Shown: positions 49,901-63,799 of the stretch, one piece after another
Layout of the letters: each line of letters opens with the position of its first letter
Numbering within the stretch: position 1 is the stretch's first letter
NCBI GenBank assembly: GCA_022071975.1
Contig: JAJVIO010000035.1
Span: 15,162-79,161 of the forward strand
DNA: 64,000 nt
DNA from: Planctomycetota bacterium
Lineage (GTDB): Bacteria; Planctomycetota; UBA8742; UBA2392
Direction of reading: 5' to 3'
Translations under genes and position numbers: made by a program
Notes under the pieces: generated by a model
What the model was told of the DNA's origin: nothing
The model's input: the letters and a program-made list of their open reading frames with translations, nothing else
Databases searched by the model: none

Positions 49901-50240
49901 GACCGGCGCGATCGTGCTGGAGCTGCGGGGCGACGATGCCGCGCTGATGCTGCGGCTTGAGGCCGGGACGCACCGCTTCCGGTTCGACAGCGAATCGGAG
50001 CCGATCAACGTGGAAGTCGGCTGCCACGCGCAATCCGCCTGGCGCGCGAAGTTCCCGCTGCCGCGCGGCATGGCGAGCGCCGAGCCCGTACGCCGCCGCT
50101 ACGACATGGCGCAGCACCAGGCCAAGGACGAGCGCCTGGAAGAAATCCTCGCCTGGACCGGCAGCCGCATCGACGCCGTGCTGGCGCGCTGCATCAAGGC
50201 GGGCTTCGAGCTCGAGCTGGAAAAGCAGGTGGGCCTGTGA
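46911..50240 (+). CDS. ClpA/B-like double AAA+ ATPase, paralog 1
   Basis: Walker A GPSGVGKT and GPTGVGKT, RFDMSEY, FDEFEKAH, IMTSNLG, RPELLNRID, GARPLKR; long C-terminal extension. Start codon uncertain. Confidence 0.9.
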   Translation: MTERRLQLHTLIQAFENDSVLAEALHYPEISRFEATPAKARRAVLTNARGLAERSPLLELFRRCSPSTPVAREFRVTLPPPRELPLWSEPLELSFHAAVFEFPGEAWAAYFPALQVEVIAPDEAELNRRVPDELRLALHRTRADATLWNLAALQRSQSLSIESAKFTADIPTPKDLAMREARAPKEPSVLENVAVDLTQQKLQQAHEYEAHARRLAEALSEPGPQSVLLVGPSGVGKTAVFHELVRMRQHYRFGRTPFWATSGSRLVAGMSGFGMWQERCDKLRKEASRTRAILHLGNLVELMEVGKGVMIQQGIAGFLRPFIARGELLCVVECTPEQLPIIERQDPHLLGVFHKLEITEPEPDTAAAILLSVAHEISQAKGRELIELHTLETIDRLHRRYATYSAYPGRPLRFLRNLLADREQPATDADVYAAFSRETGLPRLMLDSALPMQPGPVQQFFTERIIGQPGAIGLVTDLLATVKAGLSRPRKPLASLLFVGPTGVGKTETSKALAEFLFNDRRRITRFDMSEYASPAAVQRLIGGAFGEEGLLTARVREQPFAVLLFDEFEKAHPLFFDLLLQVLGEARLTDAAGRLADFSNAVVIMTSNLGAEGFMQGAIGFGKNAADAAGHFTRALRDFVRPELLNRIDRVVPFLPLDETSVLRIVRREVELLKQRPGLRDTGTRLEVGDDALQLVARKAYQPALGARPLKREIESGLLVPLAEALNTQPTEYALSAVVAAGDKKLELATAPLTGADSRPQARSFAEAWLAGLRQDVTQLRRKLQTALVSPAALRLRNEIYRLNRTLEMEKRRRRKKPDQPIPAKVFETEQRLAKVREVLHAFEACMEAAVAAEDRLALASLGGARTQEQPARAEVESCKVAWSSALRALMRLDGGGANLASLWVYSHHNELMFELASAYHAWAVASGMQVEVLWATREFSQAEQRELQRRADFDGRASEAPRHAVTLQAHGTEEQRPLLFPPADIENFLANPREETGAIVLELRGDDAALMLRLEAGTHRFRFDSESEPINVEVGCHAQSAWRAKFPLPRGMASAEPVRRRYDMAQHQAKDERLEEILAWTGSRIDAVLARCIKAGFELELEKQVGL

Positions 50241-53200
50241 AGCTGACCATCCCGCTCTACCAGGAGAAGTTCAGCCACGAAGGCCGCGACGTCTTCTTCG
50301 TGCGCCCGCTGTTCTACTGCGACGTGGAAGCCCTGCGCCCCGAGCTGCGCCGCGCCACCGACTCCGTGCGCACCGCCCTGCGCAAGCTGCTGCAGAAGCT
50401 GTCTGAAGAAGCGCGCCACGACGCGCTGGCCTGGCACGCCCAGTGCCCCGAGGTCAGCGAGCAGCACGTCAGCCTGCGCCTGCAGCTCAAGCGCCGCAGC
50501 GTGGAGACGCGCTTCCTGTTCGCCGTTTACCAGCAGGGTGAGCAGCGCATAGCCTTCACGCCGCGCCTGCCGGCGCTGGCCTTCACGCTGGCCCGCGGCG
50601 AAAGCCTGGAAACCCGCGCCGAGCAGGTGCTCACCGCCCACTACCGCAAGCTCGAGCGCGAGCACGGCGAGGTGGACCCCGCCCTCGACGCCATGCGCGG
50701 CACGGCCTGGATCTCGCACCTCGACATCGATCTCGCCATCGAGGCCACCCACGTGCCGCCGCGCAAGAAAGACCGCGCCGAGATCGGCAGCTTCGAGCAG
50801 ATGCGCGGCGCCGATGAACTGCAGCGCGTGGGCCGCCAGCTCAACGCCCTCTACCCCGACGACCTCGAGCGCGCCGTGCGCCGCGAAGAGCCCGTGGCCG
50901 AGCTGCTGCGCCTGCTCGAGCACCCAGACAAGCGCCCGCTGCTGCTGCTCGGCCGTTCCGGCGCAGGCAAGACCGCCCTGGTGCATGAGGCCGTGCGCCG
51001 CCGCATCGAGGCCAGGGGCGAAGACGGCCAGGGCGCGCGCGGCCAGGTGTGGCTGCTTTCGCCGCAGCGGCTGATCTCGGGCATGAGCTTCGTGGGCCAG
51101 TGGGAGAACCGCGTGCACGCGATTCTCGCCGAGTGCAAGCGCCGCGGCCACGTGCTGTATTTTGACGATTTCATCGGCCTGTTCCGGGCCGGCATTTCCG
51201 CCAGCAGCAAGGTCAGCGCCGCGCAGGTGCTGAAGCCGCACATCGAAAAGCACGAAGTGCGCCTGCTGGTGGAAATGACGCCCGACCAGTTCCGCGTGCT
51301 GAACGAGCTGGATCGCGGCTTCGCCGACCTGTTCCACGTGCTGCGCCTCGACGAGCCCGCCGAAGAAGAAAACCTGCGCATCCTGCTGCACGTGCAGCGC
51401 GAGCTGGAGGCCCGCCACCCGTGCCGCTTCAGCCACGACGTGCTGCCCACGGCGCTGGACCTGATGCAGCGCTACCAGCGCGAGGTCGCCATGCCGGGCA
51501 AGGTCGCCGGCTTCCTGCAGCAGCTGGCGGTCAAGCACCGCAACGGGGCGATCCACCGCTTCCAGGCGCTCAGTGAGTTCGAAGCCCGCAGCGGCCTGCG
51601 CGTGATGTTCCTGGATGCCAACTCGCGCCTGTCGCGCGACATGGTCACCTACGGCCTGCGCGAGCGCGTAATCGGCCAGGACGCCGCTGTGGAAGCCCTG
51701 GCCGACGTGGTGGCCGTGGCCAAGGCGCGGCTGAACGATCCCGAGCGGCCGTTGGGTTCGCTGCTGTTTCTCGGCCCTACGGGCGTGGGCAAAACCGAAA
51801 CCGCCAAGGCGCTGGCCCACTGGCTGTACGGCGACGCCTCGCGCCTGCTGCGTTTCGACATGAACGAGTTCGTGGACGGCGCCTCGGTCGCGCGCCTGGT
51901 CGGCACGCTCAGCGAGCCCGAGGGCCTGCTCACCAGCGCCGTGCGCCGCCAGCCCTTCGCCACGATCTTGCTCGACGAAATCGAGAAGGCCCACCCGGCC
52001 GCCTTTGACGTGCTGCTGCAGGTGCTGGGCGAAGGCCGCCTCACCGACGCGCTGGGTCGCACGGCCGACTTCACCAACTGCGTGATCATCATGACCAGCA
52101 ACCTCGGCGTGCGTGAAGCCCAGGGCGGCCTCGGGCTCGGCGGCCACGAGCAGCGCGGCGACGAGGCCTACGTGCAGGCGGCGCGGCGCTTCTTCCGGCC
52201 GGAGTTCTTCAACCGCATCGACCGCATCGTGCCCTTCCAGCGCCTGCAGCGCCCGCAGATCGAGCGCATCGCGCAGCTGCTGCTGCGCGAGGTGTTCACG
52301 CGCGAGGGGCTTGCGCGGCGGCGCTGCGTGCTGCAGGTGGACGCGCTGGCCATGGAGCGCGTGGTGGACAAGGGCTTCCACCCGGCCCTGGGCGCGCGCG
52401 CCATCAAGCGCGAGATCGAGCGGCAGCTCACGCGCCCGCTGTCGGCGCGGCTCAGCGAGTTGAACCCGGAGGTGCCCACCATCGTGCACCTGATGGCGCG
52501 CGGTGACGATATCGACGTCGGGCTGATCCCGATGCAACCCGCGCAACCGGCGCAAACCGTCAACCTGGACGACCCGGACGCCGTGGTGGCTCGCATCGAC
52601 GACGTGCTGAACCGCGCCGAAGACCAGCTGCACGCCCTGCAGCCGCAGGGCGCGATCCCGGTCGAGGCCGTCACGCCCGAGCTGCGCCGCTACTTCGCCC
52701 TGCGCGAGCAGCTGCAGTACCTGGACGACGCCGTCGAGCGCTTCCTTGATTGGCGCGAGCGCGAGGCTCTGCGCCCGGCCCCCGTTGAGGCCAGCGCCAG
52801 CGCGCTCAGCGAAGAGCGTCCGCGCCGCTCGCAGCTTTCCGAGGCCCTGCCGGTCGGGCCCACGGCGTGGCTGGAGCTGCGCACACCCAACGAGCTGGCG
52901 GCCTGGCTGGCCCAGCGCGCCGAAGAGCAGGGCGAAAGCGAACTTCACGGCCGTCTGCGCCGCCTGCTGGCGTCGGCCTGCCTGCTCAACCTGATGGTCG
53001 AGCGCCCGCCCGTTGAGGACGAACGCGCCCTGCTGATCGTGCGCACTGTGGACGGCAGCATGGCCAGCATCCCCGAGATGCTGGCGGAGACCTTCGGCGC
53101 CCTGATGCGCCACCGCTTCGACCTCGGCGCCAGCGAGCTGAAGCTGAAGCAGCCGGGCGCCGCGGGCTGCGTGGTCTCGGGCTACCTGGCCCATGCGCTG

Positions 53201-53533
53201 TGCGGCGCGCTCGCCGGCCTGCACCTGTGGTGCTGGGACGGCGGCCTGCTGCCCCTGCAGGTGATCGCACTGCCGCTACAGCAAGGCGCCGACCCGGCCG
53301 AAGTCGCGGCCGGCGTTGACGCGCAGCGCCGCGCCTGGGCCGAGGCCGTGGCGAAGGGCGAAGCGGGCGCCGACGACGACCCGCTGCCCCACGGTCCGGT
53401 AGTGCAGCAGCACTACACCAACGGCAGCACGCTCGACCTGCGCGCCGGCCAGGTCTCCCGCGAGCGTCCGTCGCTGAGCCTGCTGGCGAGTTGGCTGCTG
53501 GGCGGCTTCAAGCTGCCGGAGGTGCAGCCATGA
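50237..53533 (+). CDS. ClpA/B-like double AAA+ ATPase, paralog 2
   Basis: GRSGAGKT, GPTGVGKT, LDEIEKAH, RPEFFNRID, GARAIKR; GTGA overlap with paralog 1. Confidence 0.9.
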   Translation: MKLTIPLYQEKFSHEGRDVFFVRPLFYCDVEALRPELRRATDSVRTALRKLLQKLSEEARHDALAWHAQCPEVSEQHVSLRLQLKRRSVETRFLFAVYQQGEQRIAFTPRLPALAFTLARGESLETRAEQVLTAHYRKLEREHGEVDPALDAMRGTAWISHLDIDLAIEATHVPPRKKDRAEIGSFEQMRGADELQRVGRQLNALYPDDLERAVRREEPVAELLRLLEHPDKRPLLLLGRSGAGKTALVHEAVRRRIEARGEDGQGARGQVWLLSPQRLISGMSFVGQWENRVHAILAECKRRGHVLYFDDFIGLFRAGISASSKVSAAQVLKPHIEKHEVRLLVEMTPDQFRVLNELDRGFADLFHVLRLDEPAEEENLRILLHVQRELEARHPCRFSHDVLPTALDLMQRYQREVAMPGKVAGFLQQLAVKHRNGAIHRFQALSEFEARSGLRVMFLDANSRLSRDMVTYGLRERVIGQDAAVEALADVVAVAKARLNDPERPLGSLLFLGPTGVGKTETAKALAHWLYGDASRLLRFDMNEFVDGASVARLVGTLSEPEGLLTSAVRRQPFATILLDEIEKAHPAAFDVLLQVLGEGRLTDALGRTADFTNCVIIMTSNLGVREAQGGLGLGGHEQRGDEAYVQAARRFFRPEFFNRIDRIVPFQRLQRPQIERIAQLLLREVFTREGLARRRCVLQVDALAMERVVDKGFHPALGARAIKREIERQLTRPLSARLSELNPEVPTIVHLMARGDDIDVGLIPMQPAQPAQTVNLDDPDAVVARIDDVLNRAEDQLHALQPQGAIPVEAVTPELRRYFALREQLQYLDDAVERFLDWREREALRPAPVEASASALSEERPRRSQLSEALPVGPTAWLELRTPNELAAWLAQRAEEQGESELHGRLRRLLASACLLNLMVERPPVEDERALLIVRTVDGSMASIPEMLAETFGALMRHRFDLGASELKLKQPGAAGCVVSGYLAHALCGALAGLHLWCWDGGLLPLQVIALPLQQGADPAEVAAGVDAQRRAWAEAVAKGEAGADDDPLPHGPVVQQHYTNGSTLDLRAGQVSRERPSLSLLASWLLGGFKLPEVQP

Positions 53534-55764
53534 GCGTTACCCGCCTGCCGGTATTAGTCTGGCGCGACCACGAAGGCCACTTCACGGCCGCGCTCGTGGA
53601 CCAGCCCGAGTATGCCGCCTTCGGCACTTCGGCCCAGGACTGCCTGCAGCAGTTGCGCCATCACCTGACCTGGCTGCAGCGCAACGAGCCGTGGTATTTC
53701 CCGGAATCCAGCGGCGACGAGTGCAAACTGATTCGCGTGGCCGTGGACGTGCGCCCCGAGTACGTGGTCGGCCGCCAGCGCCACCCCAGCGAGCCGATCC
53801 GCGTGACCGTGCCCTGCGTGCACAGCGAGCTGACGGGCGGCCTGCACGCCTGCGCGATCCCGCCGTTGCAGTTGTGGTTCTCGTTCCATGAGGCCGACAA
53901 GCTGCGCGAGCTTGCCGCCCACTACGTGCGCGAGGCGCTGCAGGGCAAGTCGCCGGCGCAGGTGGCGCGGCTGCTGAACGCGGCCGAGTACGAGCTCGCG
54001 GATGTGCTGGTCACCGCGCCTGAAGAGCGCAAGACGCGGGCCGAGCGGCGCTACGAGTCGCTGGAAACCGTGGCCGAGGCGCTGGGCGAGCGCGCCCTGC
54101 GCCGCCAGTTCAGTCGCGCCTGGGAGCGCGAGCGCGAAATCCACGAGCTCTCGCGCCGGGTGAAAAACGACCGCGCCAACGTGCTGCTGGTGGGCCCGCC
54201 CGGCGTGGGCAAGACCTCGGTGCTGGCCAGCGCCGCCCGCGAGCTCGAGCGCCAGCTTGAGGGCGACGTCGAGCGCCGACGCTTCTGGCTGACGAACGGC
54301 TCAAGGCTGATCGCCGGCACGCCCTACCTGGGCCAGTGGGAAGAGCGCCTGGAGGCCGTGATCGCCGAGCTGCAGGGCTTCCAGGGCGTGCTGTGCATCG
54401 AGAACCTGCTTGAGCTGGTGCGCCTCGGCGGCCACGACGCCAGCGACAGCGTGGGCGCATTCCTGATTCCGTACATGAACCACCGCGAGCTGCAGGTGGT
54501 GGCCGAGGCCACGCCCGAAGAGCTGGACGCCTGCCGCCGCCTGCTGCCCGGCCTGGCGGACGCCTTCCAGGTGCTGCGCGTGGAGCCCTTTGACGCGTCA
54601 AGTGCCCTGCGCGTGCTGGACCGCATCGCGCAGGCGGGTGCTCGCAACCTGCGCGTGGAGACCGGCAACGACGTGGTGCACACGGTGTTCCGCCTGTTCC
54701 GGCGTTTCCGGCCCTACGACGCCTTCCCCGGCAAGGCGGCCGCGTTCACTTCCGGCCTGATCCAGCAGGCCGCGAGCGCCGAGCAGCGCAAGCTGGAGCA
54801 GCAGGCCGTGACCGACCGCTTCGTGGATGAAACCGGCCTGCCCGAACTGCTGCTGCGCGACGACCTGCCGCTCGCCGAGCCCGACGTGCTGGCCGCCCTG
54901 TCCGCCCGGGTGATCGGCCAGGAAGCCGCCTGCCGCGCGGCCGCCGGTGTGATCACCACCTTCAAGGCCGGGCTGAACGATCCCGGCCGGCCCCTGGGCG
55001 TGCTGCTGTTCAGCGGCCCCACGGGCGTCGGCAAGACCGAGCTGGCCCGCGCCATGGCCGACTACCTGTTCGGCCACGGCGAAACACACGAGCGCCTGGT
55101 GCGCCTGGATATGAGCGAGTACACCGGCCACGGCGCGAGCGAGCGCCTGGTGTCGGACGCAAGCGGCGGCCCCAGCGACTTCATCAAGCGCGTGCGCAGC
55201 CAGCCCTTCTGCGTGGTGCTGCTGGATGAAATCGAGAAAGCCTCGCCGGACGTGTTCGACATGCTGCTTGCGGTGTTCGATGAAGGCCGGCTCACGGACC
55301 GCTTCGGCCGCGTCACCAGCTTCCAGTCCAGCGTGCTGATCATGACCAGCAACCTCGGGGCCGGGCGCGAAGGCGGCCTGGGCTTCGGCAAGGCGCGCGG
55401 CCCGGACTACGACGCCGAAGTGATGCGCTTTTTCCGGCCGGAGTTCTACAACCGGCTGGACGCGGTGGTGGCGTTCGCGCCACTGCACGAGCAGACCATC
55501 CGCGCGATCGCCGAGAAGGAGCTGCGTGAGCTGGCCGCGCGCGAAGGCATGGCAGGGCTGAGCCTGAGTTGGGATGAAGCAGTGGCCGCACTGGTGGCAT
55601 CGGCCGGCTTCGACCAGCGCTACGGCGCGCGCCCCCTCCAGCGCGCGCTCGAAGAGCTGGTGGTAACGCCCATCGCCCGCGAGCTGGCATCCAACCCGGA
55701 TCGCCGCCAGGCCAGGCTGCATCTGTCAGTCCAGCAAGGCCGAGTAGTCCTGCAGTGGGCGTAG
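53530..55764 (+). CDS. ClpA/B-like double AAA+ ATPase, paralog 3
   Basis: GPPGVGKT, GPTGVGKT, LDEIEKAS, RPEFYNRLD, YGARPLQR; ATGA overlap with paralog 2. Confidence 0.9.
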   Translation: MSVTRLPVLVWRDHEGHFTAALVDQPEYAAFGTSAQDCLQQLRHHLTWLQRNEPWYFPESSGDECKLIRVAVDVRPEYVVGRQRHPSEPIRVTVPCVHSELTGGLHACAIPPLQLWFSFHEADKLRELAAHYVREALQGKSPAQVARLLNAAEYELADVLVTAPEERKTRAERRYESLETVAEALGERALRRQFSRAWEREREIHELSRRVKNDRANVLLVGPPGVGKTSVLASAARELERQLEGDVERRRFWLTNGSRLIAGTPYLGQWEERLEAVIAELQGFQGVLCIENLLELVRLGGHDASDSVGAFLIPYMNHRELQVVAEATPEELDACRRLLPGLADAFQVLRVEPFDASSALRVLDRIAQAGARNLRVETGNDVVHTVFRLFRRFRPYDAFPGKAAAFTSGLIQQAASAEQRKLEQQAVTDRFVDETGLPELLLRDDLPLAEPDVLAALSARVIGQEAACRAAAGVITTFKAGLNDPGRPLGVLLFSGPTGVGKTELARAMADYLFGHGETHERLVRLDMSEYTGHGASERLVSDASGGPSDFIKRVRSQPFCVVLLDEIEKASPDVFDMLLAVFDEGRLTDRFGRVTSFQSSVLIMTSNLGAGREGGLGFGKARGPDYDAEVMRFFRPEFYNRLDAVVAFAPLHEQTIRAIAEKELRELAAREGMAGLSLSWDEAVAALVASAGFDQRYGARPLQRALEELVVTPIARELASNPDRRQARLHLSVQQGRVVLQWA

Positions 55765-55828
55765 TACGGAGCGCGGACGTCACGTCCGCAAATCAAAGCC
55801 CAGCCCGCAAGGGCTGGGGTGTGCAGTT

Positions 55829-56582
55829 CAGCCGGCGCGGCCGGCGTCTCCCTCGGTCAGCCCCCGGCGCAGCGACCCGCCCGCCAAAGCCTTGGCGACG
55901 GCGGGAGCGGAGCCTGGGGACACGGACGGATCCAATTCCCGAGCCGCGCAGCGGCGGCTCTTGTGAGGGCGCACAACTATCAGCCCGGTATCATGCCGCC
56001 ATGAGCCATGCCTACACGCGCCAGCTGCTGCACATTGTGTTCAGCACCAAGGAACGCAGGTCGTTCCTGCACGTGGAGCTCCGGCCTCGCATGCTGGGCT
56101 ACCTGCGCACCTTGGCCAACGACTTGAACACCACCGCGCTGGCGCTTAACGGCGTGGACGATCACGTTCACATTCTGGTGGATATGCCGGCCGCGCTTAG
56201 CACGGCGGAGTTTCTGACCAAGCTGAAGGCGAACTCCTCGCGTTGGTTTCGCAGCCTGTTCCCGAAAGTCGATTTCCGCTGGCAACGCGGTTACGGCGCG
56301 TTCAGCGTCAGCCCATCGAAACTCGAGGAAGTGCGGGGCTACATCGACCGCCAGGAAGCGCATCACCAGAAACATTCATTCGAGGGCGAGATACGAAAGC
56401 TGGCGAAGAACCACGGCCTGGAGTTTGACGAGCGCTTCTTCCTGGGATGAGAGCCGCCGCTTCGCGGCTCTCTGACTTTGCCACAACCCAACCCCCGGCT
56501 CCGCTCCCGCCGTCGCCAAGGCTTTGGCGGGCGGGTCGCTGCGCCGGGGGCTTACCAAGGGAGACGCCGGCTTCGCCGGCTG
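55829..56582. mobile_element. Y1 transposase locus bracketed by two nested pairs of inverted repeats (RAYT-like or IS200-like)
   Basis: 55829..55919 vs 56492..56582 (91 bp, about 5 mismatches) and 55941..55961 vs 56450..56470 (21 bp, 1 mismatch). Confidence 0.8.
56001..56450 (+). CDS. tnpA: IS200/IS605-family TnpA (Y1 HUH transposase)
   Basis: HIVFSTK, DHVHIL (HUH), WQRGYGAFSVS, catalytic YIDRQ; no tnpB. Confidence 0.93.
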   Translation: MSHAYTRQLLHIVFSTKERRSFLHVELRPRMLGYLRTLANDLNTTALALNGVDDHVHILVDMPAALSTAEFLTKLKANSSRWFRSLFPKVDFRWQRGYGAFSVSPSKLEEVRGYIDRQEAHHQKHSFEGEIRKLAKNHGLEFDERFFLG

Positions 56583-59550: not shown

Positions 59551-59671
59551 TTTGTGCACCTAACCCGTTTGACCGCCGCGACTTTCGTTCATCGTGATCT
59601 TTTCTGCTTTTCCGGAACCTCGCCACCGCACCTGCGTCCAAAACGAACTGGTTCTGTTCAAGGGGAACGTT

Positions 59672-62600
59672 ATGGGCTCTTCCTTTAATCTACGGCGCTG
59701 GCGCGGGCCTTTGCTGGGCGGCGCGTTCGCCCTGGCCGTGATGGCCGGCCTTTCGCCATTTAACGGCCAGGACAAAACGCCTGACCTGGGCGGCAACGAC
59801 CGCTACCTCGCCCACATCTCAACCGACAAGCCGATCTACCGGCCGGGCGAAACCCTCTACCTGCGCTCGGTGCTGCTGCACGCCTTCAAGCACACGCCAT
59901 TGAAAGGCGCCCAGTACGCGCAAGCCAAGGTCACCAATTCGCGCGGCTCGGTGGTGATGGAGTCCAACTTCCGCATCGATGACTCCGCGGGCGGCGCAAG
60001 CTGGGAAATTCCCAAAAACATTGCCGGCGGCGAATACACCGTGAAGGTCACCTTCCCCAACAGCGGCTACGCGCCCGCCGAGCGCAAGTTCGACATCCGC
60101 GCCTACCGCGCCCCGCGCATCAAGAGCCAGCTCGAGTTCGTGCGTAAGGCCTACGGCCCCGGCGACACCGTAAGCGCCGTGCTGAACGCCACCCGCGCCG
60201 AGGGCGGCGCGCCCAGCGGCGCCAAGGTCACGGCCGTGGCGCGCATCGACGGCGCCGAGGTGTGGCGCGGCGAAACCAGGGTTGACGCCAAGGGCAACTG
60301 CTCGGTCTCGTTTGACCTGCCGGAGAAGATCGAAACCGGCGTGGGCTCGCTCTCGCTGGTGATTGAAGATGGCGGTGTGGTCGAGACGGCATCCAAGACC
60401 CTGCCGATCCTGCTGCAGCAGATTCCCATCGCCTTCAGCCCCGAGGGCGGCGACCTGGTCGCCGGCCTGGAGTGCGGCCTGTACTTCGAGGCGCTGACGC
60501 CCTGGGGCGACCCGGCGGACGTCAGCGGCGAAATCCGCGACGCCAAGGGCAACCGCGTGGCCGACTTCGCAACCACGCACGAAGGGCGCGGCAGCCTGAA
60601 GTTCACGCCCGCCGCGGACACCGAGTACTTCGCCCACATCACCAGCCCCAAGGGCATCACCGTGGCGGCGCCGCTGCCCAAAGTATTGAAGGAAGGCGCC
60701 AGCCTGCGCGCCGCGCAGCCGGTGTACGGCGCGGGCGAGGCGCTGGGCTTCAACGTCGCCAGCAGCAAGGGCGGCGCCTGCAAGCTGGTGCTGTCCCAGC
60801 GCGAGACCGAAGTGGCCGCGCAGAAACTTGACCTGAAGGCCGGGGAAAGCGCGCTGGTCAGCCTGACGCCGGCCACCGACATCGACGGCGTGCTGCGCGC
60901 CACCCTGTTTGACGCCAACGACAAGCCACTGGCCGAGCGCCTGGTGTTCCGCAGGCCGCAGCGCGAGCTGAACATAGAGATCGTCGCCAGCCCCGAGCAC
61001 GCGGTGCCCGGCGACAAGGTGGAGCTCACGATCCGCACGACCACGTCTAAGGGCGAGCCGGTCGCGGCCACCGTGGGCCTGACCGTCACCGACGACGCGG
61101 TGCTGCAGATGATCGAGACCCGCAAGCAGGCCCCGCGCCTGCCGGTGATGGCGCTGCTCGAGAACGAGGTCGATCACCTCGAGGACGCACACGTTTACCT
61201 CAGCGCCGACCCCAAGGCCGCGGCGGGCATCGACCTGCTGCTCGGCACCCAGGGCTGGCGCCGCTTCAGCTACCTGAACGCCGAGGAGTTCATGCGCAAG
61301 CACGGCGACAAGGCCAAGCGCGCCCTGGCCTTCCGCAACCCGCCCCCGCCCGCGATGCCGCGCGGCGGTGGTTGCTGGGGAGGCGGCGGCGTCGCAGGCA
61401 GGCCGCGTCCGGCCGCAGGTCCGCAACCGGAAGACGCCCGCGATGAAGTCAACGAAGACGGCGCCGTCGAGGGCCAGGGTGAAGCCCCGCCGGAGCCGAA
61501 CAACGCGGCGCCCGCCGAGGAGCCGGCCGAGGAAAAGGCTGCCAGCAAGGTCCACCGCGACGCGGAAGAAGCTGAGATGGCCGACGACAAGATCGCGGGC
61601 GAACGCCTGCGCCGCAAGGCCCAGGCCATGGTCGCAATTCGCGAGTACGCCCACCAGTTGCGCGCAGGCCGTCAGGCCGGCGACCGCAAGGATTTCACCG
61701 AGACGCTGTACTGGAACGCCGGCGTGAAAACCAACGAGCGCGGCGAGGCCAAGGTCAGCTTCTTCCTCAGTGACTCGGTCACCAGCTTCCGCGTGATGGC
61801 CGACGGCTTCAACGACGCCGGCGCGCTCGGCCAGGCCGACGCGCTGGTCACCTCGCGCAAGCCCTTCTACCTCGAGCCCAAGCTGCCGCTTGAAGTCACC
61901 GCGGGCGACGTGGTGATGCTGCCCGTCTCCCTGGTGAACTCCACCAGCGGCGGCATGAAGGTTGTGCTGGAAGCCAGCGGCGGCGAGGCCATCTCCCTGC
62001 CGGAAAACTTCAACGGCGAGCTGGAGCTCAAGTCCGACTCGCGCGGCCGTCTGCTGCTGCCGGTCCGTGTCGGCCGCGCCAACGGCATGCTGACCCTGAC
62101 GCTGGACGGCAAGGCCGGCGCCTTCAGCGACCGCGTGACGCGCGAGTTCGCGGTCAAGCCGCTCGGCTTCCCCATGAGCTTCACGGCCGGCGGCATGATG
62201 GACAAGCCGCAGGCGATCACCGTGACGATCCCCGAGGACGTGCACCGCAGCACGATCACCACCTCGGCCAAGGTGTACCCCACGCCGGCGGCCAACCTGA
62301 TGGCGGCCATGGAGCGGCTGATCACCGAGCCCTATGGCTGATTCGAGCAGTGTAGCTCGGTGAGCTACCCGCTTGTGATGGCCCAGCAGTACATGACCAC
62401 CCACACCGGCGTTGACCCCAAGCTGGTGGTGCGCGCCAACGAGATGCTGGAGAAGAGCTACAAGATCCTCACCAGCTTCGAGTGCGACAAGGGCGGCTTC
62501 GAGTGGTTCGGCCAGGGCGCCGGCCACGAGAGCCTCACGGCCTACGGCGTGTTGCAGTTCCAGGACATGGCCAAGGTCTACCCGGTAGATGAAGCGATGC

Positions 62601-63748
62601 TGAAGCGCACCAAGGAATGGCTGCTGAGCCGCAAGAACGACAAGGGCGGCTTCGACGTCAACCCGCGCTTCCTGCACGACTGGGGCTGCCCGCAGTACAT
62701 CGCGGACGCCTACATCGTGTGGTCGCTGACCGAGGGCGGCGACCGCAACCTCGACCAGCAGATCGACGTGCTGGTGCGCGACGCGGCCGAACGGGATGAC
62801 CCGTACTACAACGGCCTGGTCGCTCTCAGCCTGTTCAACGTCGATCGCCCCGAGGACGCCCGCAAGCTGCTGGCCCGCGTGGCCAAGCACCTGAAGGAAG
62901 ACGGCAGCGTGGTTGACAGCAAGACCACCGTGGTGAACTCGAGCGGCGACGCGCTGCTGATCGAGACCACGGCCGTGGCGGCGCTGGCCTTCCTGCGCGA
63001 CCGCGAATACGCGGGCCACGTCGAGCAGGCCATGCAGTGGCTGACCACGCGCTGCAAGGACGGCCGTTTCGGCTCGACCCAGTCCACGGTGCTGGCGCTG
63101 AAGGCGATCGTCGCCTATGACGCCGCGCGCGCCGTGCCCAAGGCCGACGGCACCCTGCTGCTGATCGTGGACGGCAGCGAGTGGGCCAAAGTGCCCTTCA
63201 CCAAGGAGACCACCGGCACCATCGAGCTGCCGAACTTCGCCGAGGCGCTGTCGCCCGGCAAGCACCGCATCGAGCTGCGCATGAAAGATGGCTCGCCGAT
63301 GCCGTACTCGTTCGACGTCAGCTTCTACTCGACCAAGCCGGTGAACGACCCGGAGTGCGAACTGGACCTGACTGTCACGCTGGCCAGCAGCGAAATCAGC
63401 GAGGGTGAGTCCACCGAGGTCAACGTCACCCTGCTCAACACCGACAAGCTGGAAGGCCAGAACATGGCCATGGCCATCGTCGGCCTGCCGGGCGGGCTCG
63501 AGCCCCGCCACGAGAAACTGAAGGAGCTGGTCAAGGCCGGTACCATCAACGCCTACGAGGTCCGCGGCCGTGACGTGATCTTCTACTTCACGACCATGCA
63601 GCCGGGCCAGGAAGCGAAGTTCAGCTTCGACGTGATCGCGGCGATCCCCGGCGAGTACAAGGGCCAGGCCAGCCGCGCCTACTGCTACTACGCGGACGAA
63701 TACCGCAAGTGGGTGGACGGCCTGAGCGTCAAGATCAACGCCCGCTAA
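59672..63748 (+). CDS. Alpha-2-macroglobulin / thioester-containing protein, 1358 aa, predicted selenoprotein (Sec890 at the thioester Cys position)
   Basis: MG domains (TDKPIYRPGE, FSPEGG), bait region, DFTETLYW, thioester-domain motifs (GGFEWFG, ETTA, GSTQSTVLAL) and C-terminal domain. The two ORF-track ORFs share one frame and are separated only by TGA 62339-62341 in EPYG*FEQCSS. Confidence 0.85.
62342..62375 (+). promoter_or_regulatory. Bacterial SECIS-like hairpin directly 3' of the in-frame UGA
   Basis: Upper stem GTAGCTC (62352-58) / GAGCTAC (62362-68), apical loop GGT beginning after a 17-nt spacer from UGA, lower stem CGAGC (62344-48) / GCTTG (62371-75). Confidence 0.75.
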
Positions 63749-63761
63749 GGGCGGCAATCGC

Positions 63762-63799
63762 AAGCGGCCCGGGGAGCGTTCCCCGGGCCGCTTCGTTTT
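63762..63799 (+). terminator. Rho-independent terminator
   Basis: AAGCGGCCCGGGGA-GCGT-TCCCCGGGCCGCTT then CGTTTT. Confidence 0.8.

Follow-up and report, generated by a model that had tools for sequence, protein, structure and literature searches.

Here we describe a bacterial alpha-2-macroglobulin (A2M) gene in which a single in-frame UGA, lying exactly at the codon for the reactive thioester cysteine (Cys), is very likely decoded as selenocysteine (Sec), judging from comparative sequence evidence. The gene occupies positions 59672..63748 (+ strand) of a 64,000-nucleotide (nt) stretch of a Planctomycetota metagenome-assembled genome (MAG; GenBank assembly GCA_022071975.1, contig JAJVIO010000035.1, positions 15,162 to 79,161). 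We refer to this whole stretch as the window and use its positions throughout. The full explanation, in which Sec sits at the macroglobulin thioester site and forms a selenoester with a glutamine (Gln) as the warhead of a protease trap, we hold to be probable. The gene belongs to a Sec-containing branch of the A2M/TEP family that is real, conserved and widespread. An earlier note on this DNA, made from the letters alone, had proposed the Sec reading together with ways in which it could fail, and the reading is supported against each of those that were run or approximated here.

Results

Two plus-strand open reading frames (ORFs), 59594..62341 and 62360..63748, share one frame, and the sole non-standard codon in it is the TGA at 62339-62341 (U916 when counted from 59594). 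The sequence at the site is GAG CCC TAT GGC TGA TTC GAG CAG TGT AGC TCG GTG AGC TAC CCG CTT. Counted from the ATG at 59672, read-through gives a product of 1358 amino acids (aa) that ends at the TAA at 63746-63748, and a stop at the TGA would give 889 aa. Pfam matches, all above cut-offs, run along the whole length. Before the TGA lie MG2 (59810..60091; PF01835, 2.8e-18), the A2M bait-region domain A2M_BRD (60713..61111; PF07703, 1.5e-07) and A2M (61703..61969; PF00207, 7.3e-16). The thioester domain (TED, TED_complement; 62303..63118; PF07678, 7.5e-25) begins 12 codons upstream of the TGA and continues across it, and after it comes an A-macroglobulin receptor-binding-type domain (MG8/RBD; 63458..63694; A2M_recep PF07677, 5.2e-07; bMG10, 1.6e-06). 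The protein hence carries the domains that mark the A2M/TEP family: a macroglobulin (MG) chain, bait, A2M, TED and receptor-binding-type domain. When the TED is aligned to those of CD109 and TEP1, P-Y-G-[UGA]-F-E-Q falls opposite PYGCGEQ and PTGCGEQ, respectively, with the TGA opposite Cys and the other PxGCxEQ positions matching. Counting the motif as PxGCxEQ depends on Sec insertion, because the UGA takes the place of Cys. The CAG at 62348..62350 encodes the Gln of U-F-E-Q, the presumed acyl partner of Sec. On its sequence, the gene is best explained as encoding one secreted A2M/TEP-family protein of roughly 1330 residues when mature. The earlier note had described two ORFs forming one frame with two intact halves, broken by one stop on the reactive Cys; the frame was right in every detail checked, the alignment to CD109 and TEP1 places the stop as described, and both halves carry domains.

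The same TGA recurs at the same codon in many relatives. A six-frame search of 401 Planctomycetota genomes with a 400-residue query around the site (E <= 1e-20) gave 144 matches in 102 genomes, 43 with exactly one internal stop, which is always TGA, and 101 without a stop; TAA, TAG or double stops were found in none of the 144. With one locus from a further search there are 44 TGA loci, and in every one of them the TGA is the codon that separates Gly from [F/M/C]-E-Q. These Sec forms retain the motif's E and Q in 44/44 cases, and the Q is invariant in the homologue alignment (A3). TGA loci occur in 26 of the 401 genomes, and 34 GCFEQ homologues serve as the Cys comparison set. The two marks of a selenoprotein gene, an in-frame UGA opposite Cys and an ORF conserved beyond it, are both present, and the expectation of the earlier note that independent homologues would have TGA aligned to Cys is borne out many times over.

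A degenerate DNA pattern (G-UGA-F-E-Q..S..[YF]-P), scanned in one genome per species over about 185,000 species, extends this range. It matched at least 119 stretches and yielded at least 80 loci; among those listed 61 are A2M-type ORFs with an in-frame TGA, and 19, with neither an ORF nor similarity, were set aside as chance matches. Among the pattern matches listed, carriers in Planctomycetota include Gemmataceae, a Candidatus Kuenenia stuttgartiensis MAG and a Candidatus Uabimicrobium chromosome; those in Chloroflexota belong to Anaerolineae, Caldilineaceae, Thermoflexales and Chloroflexia; and the others are two 'Deltaproteobacteria' MAGs, one Myxococcales MAG, one Bacillota MAG and unclassified MAGs. 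The Sec form is much rarer outside Planctomycetota. In the phylum of one Chloroflexota-like carrier (G408), only G408 itself has a TGA form among 301 genomes, and 18 others have Cys forms, so that Sec forms are rare within this phylum.

Several planctomycete genomes (G043, G150, G233, G118 and others) hold three or four Sec-type A2M paralogues, some beside Cys-type ones, and in G150 two of the Sec-type paralogues share a contig (C7:42684-43856 and C7:52360-53571). One Chloroflexota-type Sec form from an uncultured bacterium (L126:1-4842) has a long hydrophobic, transmembrane-like run between its bait-region and A2M domains, in place of a soluble bait.

The sequence after the TGA evolves as coding sequence. 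The window gene was compared with its 77% orthologue in G019 over a collinear block, in which differences at the three codon positions number 82/70/171 over 449 codons after the UGA and 44/28/83 over 220 codons before it, with amino-acid identities of 76.4% and 76.8%, respectively. By this comparison the two halves, upstream and downstream of the UGA, evolve under the same coding constraint. The block's longest stretch of unchanged codons, 13 codons, spans -3 to +10 around the UGA, against a background in which 64% of 492 identical residues with synonymous alternatives keep their codon. If the UGA terminated translation, the locus would be a pseudogene or a split gene with an 889-aa fragment lacking most of the TED, and standard gene callers would indeed annotate two ORFs here. 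Such an outcome is highly improbable given the third-position excess of changes downstream, a protein identity equal to that of the upstream half, Pfam domains that run on to the C-terminus, and the recurrence of the same single stop in 43/144 homologue matches with no other stop in any; in addition, a terminator-like repeat is seen by eye after the TAA and not after the TGA. The concern, raised in the earlier note, that only the truncated product is made thus meets a sequence conserved as coding after the TGA.

The TGA is also found in independent sequences. Identical TGA with the same 42 nt is present in a congener (95% protein identity), in another genus of the family (77%) and in two metagenome contigs (97%). 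A metagenome scan for close relatives yielded only these two contigs, and they add no covariation, since 97% identity is too close. We further compared contigs of four public runs from four studies (sludge, wastewater) over 61900-62800. Contigs bridging the codon come from two DNA runs and one RNA-library run, and no other letter occurs at 62339-62341. The bridging contigs have zero differences over 62318-62382, and one variant differs at 28/707 positions elsewhere (about 4% diverged). A TGC or TGT misread as TGA in sequencing or assembly, the first doubt that the earlier note had raised, finds nothing in its favour and has next to no probability given the same TGA in two assemblies beyond the window genome (G003 and G019) and in the two metagenome contigs, and the absence of an alternative letter at 62339-62341 in contigs from the other studies; these comparisons are at contig level.

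The window genome (91 contigs, 88.7% complete) encodes the Sec machinery that the earlier note had said should be looked for. It contains selA (548 bits), selB (334 bits), selD (391 bits, with one in-frame TGA of its own) and a tRNA-Sec gene (selC; anticodon tca, 73.1 bits) just downstream of selA, so that all four components accompany the gene. More broadly, selA occurs in 290/401 sampled Planctomycetota genomes and Sec use is therefore common in the phylum. Of the sampled genomes with a Sec-form A2M, 24/26 have selA; in the two without a selA match, which are 67% and 59% complete, selB scores above cut-off and selD bears a TGA. All three non-planctomycete carriers tested have selA. The in-frame TGA in selD is seen in the window genome (G000:C12:10590-11510) and in three further carriers (G019:C58, G214:C72 and G348:C251), so that the selenophosphate synthetase made by these organisms contains Sec. 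One and the same tRNA-Sec lies at a contig end just after selA (G000:C28:59618-59706) and at a contig start (G000:C48:28-116), and this duplicate is probably an assembly overlap of the two contig ends.

Directly at the UGA lies a hairpin of the selenocysteine insertion sequence (SECIS) type (62341..62379), supported by folding, by the bacterial SECIS (bSECIS) model and by pairing analysis. It has a 5-bp lower stem, a 7-bp upper stem GUAGCUC/GAGCUAC (62352-62358 with 62362-62368), a GGU loop (62359-62361) and a spacing of 17 nt from the UGA, as the earlier note had drawn it. In the main text of the review PMC13188914, the bSECIS model asks for a loop of 3-9 nt whose first two positions contain G, an upper stem of 4-16 bp, a distance of 16-37 nt from the UGA and a minimum free energy (MFE) of at most -7.5 kcal/mol, and the window hairpin agrees with all four; its upper hairpin alone has -8.1 kcal/mol. 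The 42 nt of 62339-62380 fold with an MFE of -16.1 kcal/mol (z -3.06), and 0/200 dinucleotide shuffles fold as well. Among 2000 synonymous recodings with the codon usage of the gene itself, 0.1% fold the 42 nt as well (z -2.74) and 0.8% contain as good a model-type hairpin. Two codons that build the stem, remarked on as atypical in the earlier note, are in fact rare in the gene: TGT is 1/10 of its Cys codons and CTT 4/120 of its Leu codons. An Rfam search of 62250-62500 returned no family at E <= 10, a result that says little beyond the lack of a fitting curated family.

A hairpin of the same design stands at the same place in the Sec forms of Chloroflexota and Bacillota (about 27-30% protein identity), which have a 7-bp stem GUACGUC/GACGUAC at 10 nt and GGC, GGU, GUC or GUU as triloop. 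Over 30 distinct sequences with this stem and triloop design, 96.7% of cells pair, compared with 16-61% in slid controls, and 3/7 stem pairs change on both sides, changes that include, between the window clade and the others, both G-C to C-G and the reverse. In the 34 GCFEQ Cys homologues, 41.6% of cells in the hairpin columns pair, against a shuffled mean of 40.8%, so the worry that the hairpin might be equally present in Cys homologues finds no support. The design shared by the window clade and the distant Sec forms may be convergent rather than inherited. Most planctomycete Sec forms have longer hairpins centred on Y-P-N codons, in at least three registers and without a G-first loop. Folding relative to synonymous recodings is nevertheless stronger in Sec forms (mean z -1.83; 24/44 at p <= 0.05) than in Cys forms (mean z -0.89; 6/34), with a one-sided Mann-Whitney p of 9e-4 for related sequences that are not independent. 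The strict bSECIS model passes 0/34 Cys GCFEQ forms and 4/16 YfhM-like Cys forms; it is useful for the window gene and is not a family-wide classifier. One Cys form nested in a mostly-Sec clade (L031, G025:C300) has a strong hairpin past its Cys codon, which may be a relic SECIS from a recent Sec-to-Cys change.

Reading of the UGA by a near-cognate ordinary tRNA (Trp, Cys or Arg), or under a changed genetic code, with selenium playing no part, is very unlikely. Read-through alone would also keep the downstream coding constraint. However, there is a single TGA in 1358 codons and it is always at the Cys codon, whereas a reassigned codon would scatter TGAs through the gene; the Sec machinery is complete, and the hairpin is specific to TGA forms.

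Several points weigh against the Sec reading or its chemistry. Wider stretches of the window gene do not fold significantly (71 nt, z -1.09, 25/200 shuffles as good; 66 nt against synonymous recodings, z -0.51, p 0.29). Compensatory changes in the type-1 stem, that is, the shared stem and triloop design, are few and set two distinct window-clade rows against 28 others, and the structure was derived from the same sequences that were then scored for pairing. The strict bSECIS model passes only 13/44 Sec forms, and some Cys forms fold well (6/34 at p <= 0.05; L031 at -19.8 kcal/mol). RNA-library contigs by themselves are no proof of transcription, and in one RNA-library run (X15) a contig ends at 62333 and the next begins at 62340, leaving the UGA unbridged, although contigs cannot show RNA ends. 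As for the chemistry, a selenoester hydrolyses more readily than a thioester, which may limit its stability in a folded protein.

Sec and Cys have been exchanged repeatedly in the family. A FastTree phylogeny of 135 rows (121 different) contains 34 Cys and 101 Sec forms, proportions that are biased because the Sec-only pattern scan supplied 57 of the Sec forms. Two clades emerge from the tree. The first contains 30 Cys forms, and nested among them the window clade and a pair from G348 stand as two Sec groups, each with full support and separate from the other; in the second most forms are Sec, with a few Cys forms interspersed. The tree can be explained with no fewer than four Sec/Cys changes, and well-supported branches force at least three. 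On this phylogeny the window gene is an independently derived Sec example. A Cys orthologue in the protein database (P0002), 83.6% identical to the Sec orthologue of G019 and 76% to the window protein, has PYGCFEQTSSTSY in place of the PYGUFEQCSSVSY of the Sec forms, which means that an exchange of Sec and Cys took place within the window's own clade. P0002 differs from the Sec forms at +4 and +7, the residues whose codons build the hairpin. Cys at +4 (U-F-E-Q-C; 62351-62353 in the window) is confined to the window clade and a single G348 copy (L071); at that position the remaining Sec forms and each of the 34 Cys homologues have Thr, Ser or Val. The window's +4 Cys is encoded by the rare TGT, with which the hairpin stem starts.

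The remaining features of the gene were mostly assigned by eye. A Shine-Dalgarno-like AAGGGGA (59660..59666, + strand) lies 5 nt upstream of the ATG, and the translation begins with a probable signal peptide (MGSSFNLRRWRGPLLGGAFALAVMAGLSPF; 59672..59761) without a lipobox Cys. An Ala/Pro/Glu/Gly-rich low-complexity stretch of 97 residues (61334..61624), recognised by composition, is a candidate protease bait because of its position between A2M_BRD and A2M. The terminator-like element (63764..63799, + strand) starts 16 nt past the TAA and consists of a GC-rich inverted repeat (GCGGCCCGGGGA / TCCCCGGGCCGC) followed by the T-run TTCGTTTT. Upstream neighbours are two ClpB-like AAA+ genes, an IS200-like transposase, a methyltransferase and a PAD-like enzyme, and no functional link was found among the upstream genes examined. 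The two ClpB-like ATPase genes (AAA_2 + ClpB_D2-small) stand in tandem at 50237-55764 with overlapping ORF calls, and the Y1 transposase gene of IS200 type follows them at 55755-56450.

Discussion

From sequence and family analogy we infer Sec insertion, a Se-acyl bond, a protease target and a kinetic advantage, which would combine as follows. SelB with Sec-tRNA(Sec) would decode the UGA at 62339-62341, directed there by the stem-loop that starts 2 nt into the UGA codon and presents its GGU triloop 17 nt downstream. Sec would then fill the Cys place of PxGCxEQ to give P-Y-G-U-F-E-Q. By analogy with the family, the selenol would attack the side-chain amide of the Gln three residues on, ammonia would be lost and a buried gamma-glutamyl selenoester would form. 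A protease cutting the exposed bait stretch would cause the protein to rearrange, and the selenoester would acylate a nucleophile of the protease and so tether it. The selenium warhead would be expected to form and discharge faster than a sulphur one, because a selenolate is a better nucleophile and a better leaving group than a thiolate. The signal peptide without a lipobox, the Ala/Pro/Glu/Gly-rich stretch, the full TED and the receptor-binding-type domain would fit a secreted or periplasmic A2M/TEP-type protease trap.

The proposed Sec-Gln selenoester is the best-supported chemical reading, and Sec is read as its nucleophile because E and Q are kept in 44/44 Sec forms, as expected if the Gln is still acylated. 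A different possibility is that Sec is inserted and forms no selenoester with the Gln, serving the TED in redox sensing, in metal or metalloid binding, or in a selenenylsulfide with the +4 Cys of U-F-E-Q-C. We regard this as unlikely. Its appeal is that most prokaryotic selenoproteins catalogued in Table 1 of PMC13188914 are redox proteins, and that the +4 Cys is present in the window clade and L071 and in no Cys homologue examined. However, most Sec forms lack the +4 Cys, the 84%-identical Cys orthologue has Thr there, and in the window clade the residue is encoded by the rare TGT that builds the hairpin stem; moreover, the retention of E and Q, with Q invariant, matches the constraint expected for a Gln acyl partner, which favours the selenoester.

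Among solved structures the window protein best matches CD109 (1.1e-20), human A2M (2e-20) and TEP1 (2.8e-16), along with A2ML1 and C3, all ahead of YfhM. It shares one Pfam set with these eukaryote-type proteins (MG2, A2M_BRD, A2M, TED_complement and A2M_recep), and its motif aligns residue for residue with those of CD109 and TEP1. It differs from them in having Sec at the thioester Cys, Phe for Gly at the fifth motif residue, and a bacterial host (a Planctomycetota MAG from sludge or bioreactor samples). The A2Ms of YfhM/ECAM type from E. coli and Salmonella are likewise bacterial, exported and built of multiple MG domains, the YfhM type with a CxEQ thioester, and are thought to trap proteases; they have a lipoprotein signal with a lipobox Cys, are about 1650 aa long and are encoded beside pbpC. 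Matches of the window protein to this type are weaker (4.7e-11 and 1.5e-09). At 1358 aa it is about 300-800 residues shorter, by eye it has no Cys in or just past its signal peptide, and the upstream genes examined include no pbpC-like neighbour. Assignment to the YfhM/ECAM type was rejected on these three counts. The YfhM-like loci examined have Cys in 16/16 cases, and a YfhM-like gene, about 2140 aa long, is present in the window genome as well (G000:C47).

As in the bacterial selenoproteins with Cys orthologues that appear in Table 1 of PMC13188914 (SelD, FdhA, peroxiredoxin and others), the UGA stands opposite Cys with a SECIS just downstream in the coding sequence. The patchy distribution and the repeated Sec/Cys switching are shared as well. 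The window Sec is placed, in contrast, at an acyl-transfer (thioester) site instead of a redox or metal-ligand one. In the text of the same review, selenoproteins A and B of glycine reductase also perform covalent, non-peroxide selenium chemistry on a carbon centre, but theirs is a catalytic Se-C intermediate in a redox cycle, whereas here a stored intramolecular Se-acyl bond is proposed, and the folds are unrelated. Table 1 of this May 2026 review lists 119 prokaryotic selenoprotein families or subfamilies, with no macroglobulin, MG2 or thioester family among them, and the terms are also absent from its main text. The terms macroglobulin, thioester and A2M have 0 occurrences in the main texts of PMC12013277, bioRxiv 10.1101/2022.07.06.499078 and PMC2398784. 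A full-text literature search turned up no paper that describes Sec in a macroglobulin or thioester protein, in keeping with the remark on novelty in the earlier note; survey supplements (deep-Sep, the GOS analysis) lie outside that search and could list the family.

Standard annotation splits or truncates Sec-form A2M genes. NCBIfam has 0 families for the window protein, and for three clade-B Sec proteins gives only faint squalene-cyclase matches far below cut-off. The 120 database relatives listed are named 'A-macroglobulin complement component', 'MG2 domain-containing protein', 'YfaS' or 'hypothetical', none as a selenoprotein. With split or truncated genes, no NCBIfam model and no such name among the relatives listed, a widespread family is hence mis-annotated.

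To our knowledge, protein selenoesters have so far been made only synthetically. We lean, with less assurance than for the site and its chemistry, towards a broader view in which this is the first natural selenoester-storing protein, a trait gained from thioester ancestors or lost on at least three to four occasions and present in at least four bacterial phyla, with Sec selected for acyl transfer beyond redox. The natural matched Sec/Cys pairs, including the 84%-identical orthologues, allow warhead reactivity to be compared directly for the chemistry behind complement and A2M. If true, the finding would mean that Sec offers an advantage in acyl transfer, through its nucleophilicity and its quality as a leaving group, whereas selenocysteine has been explained almost entirely by redox advantages.

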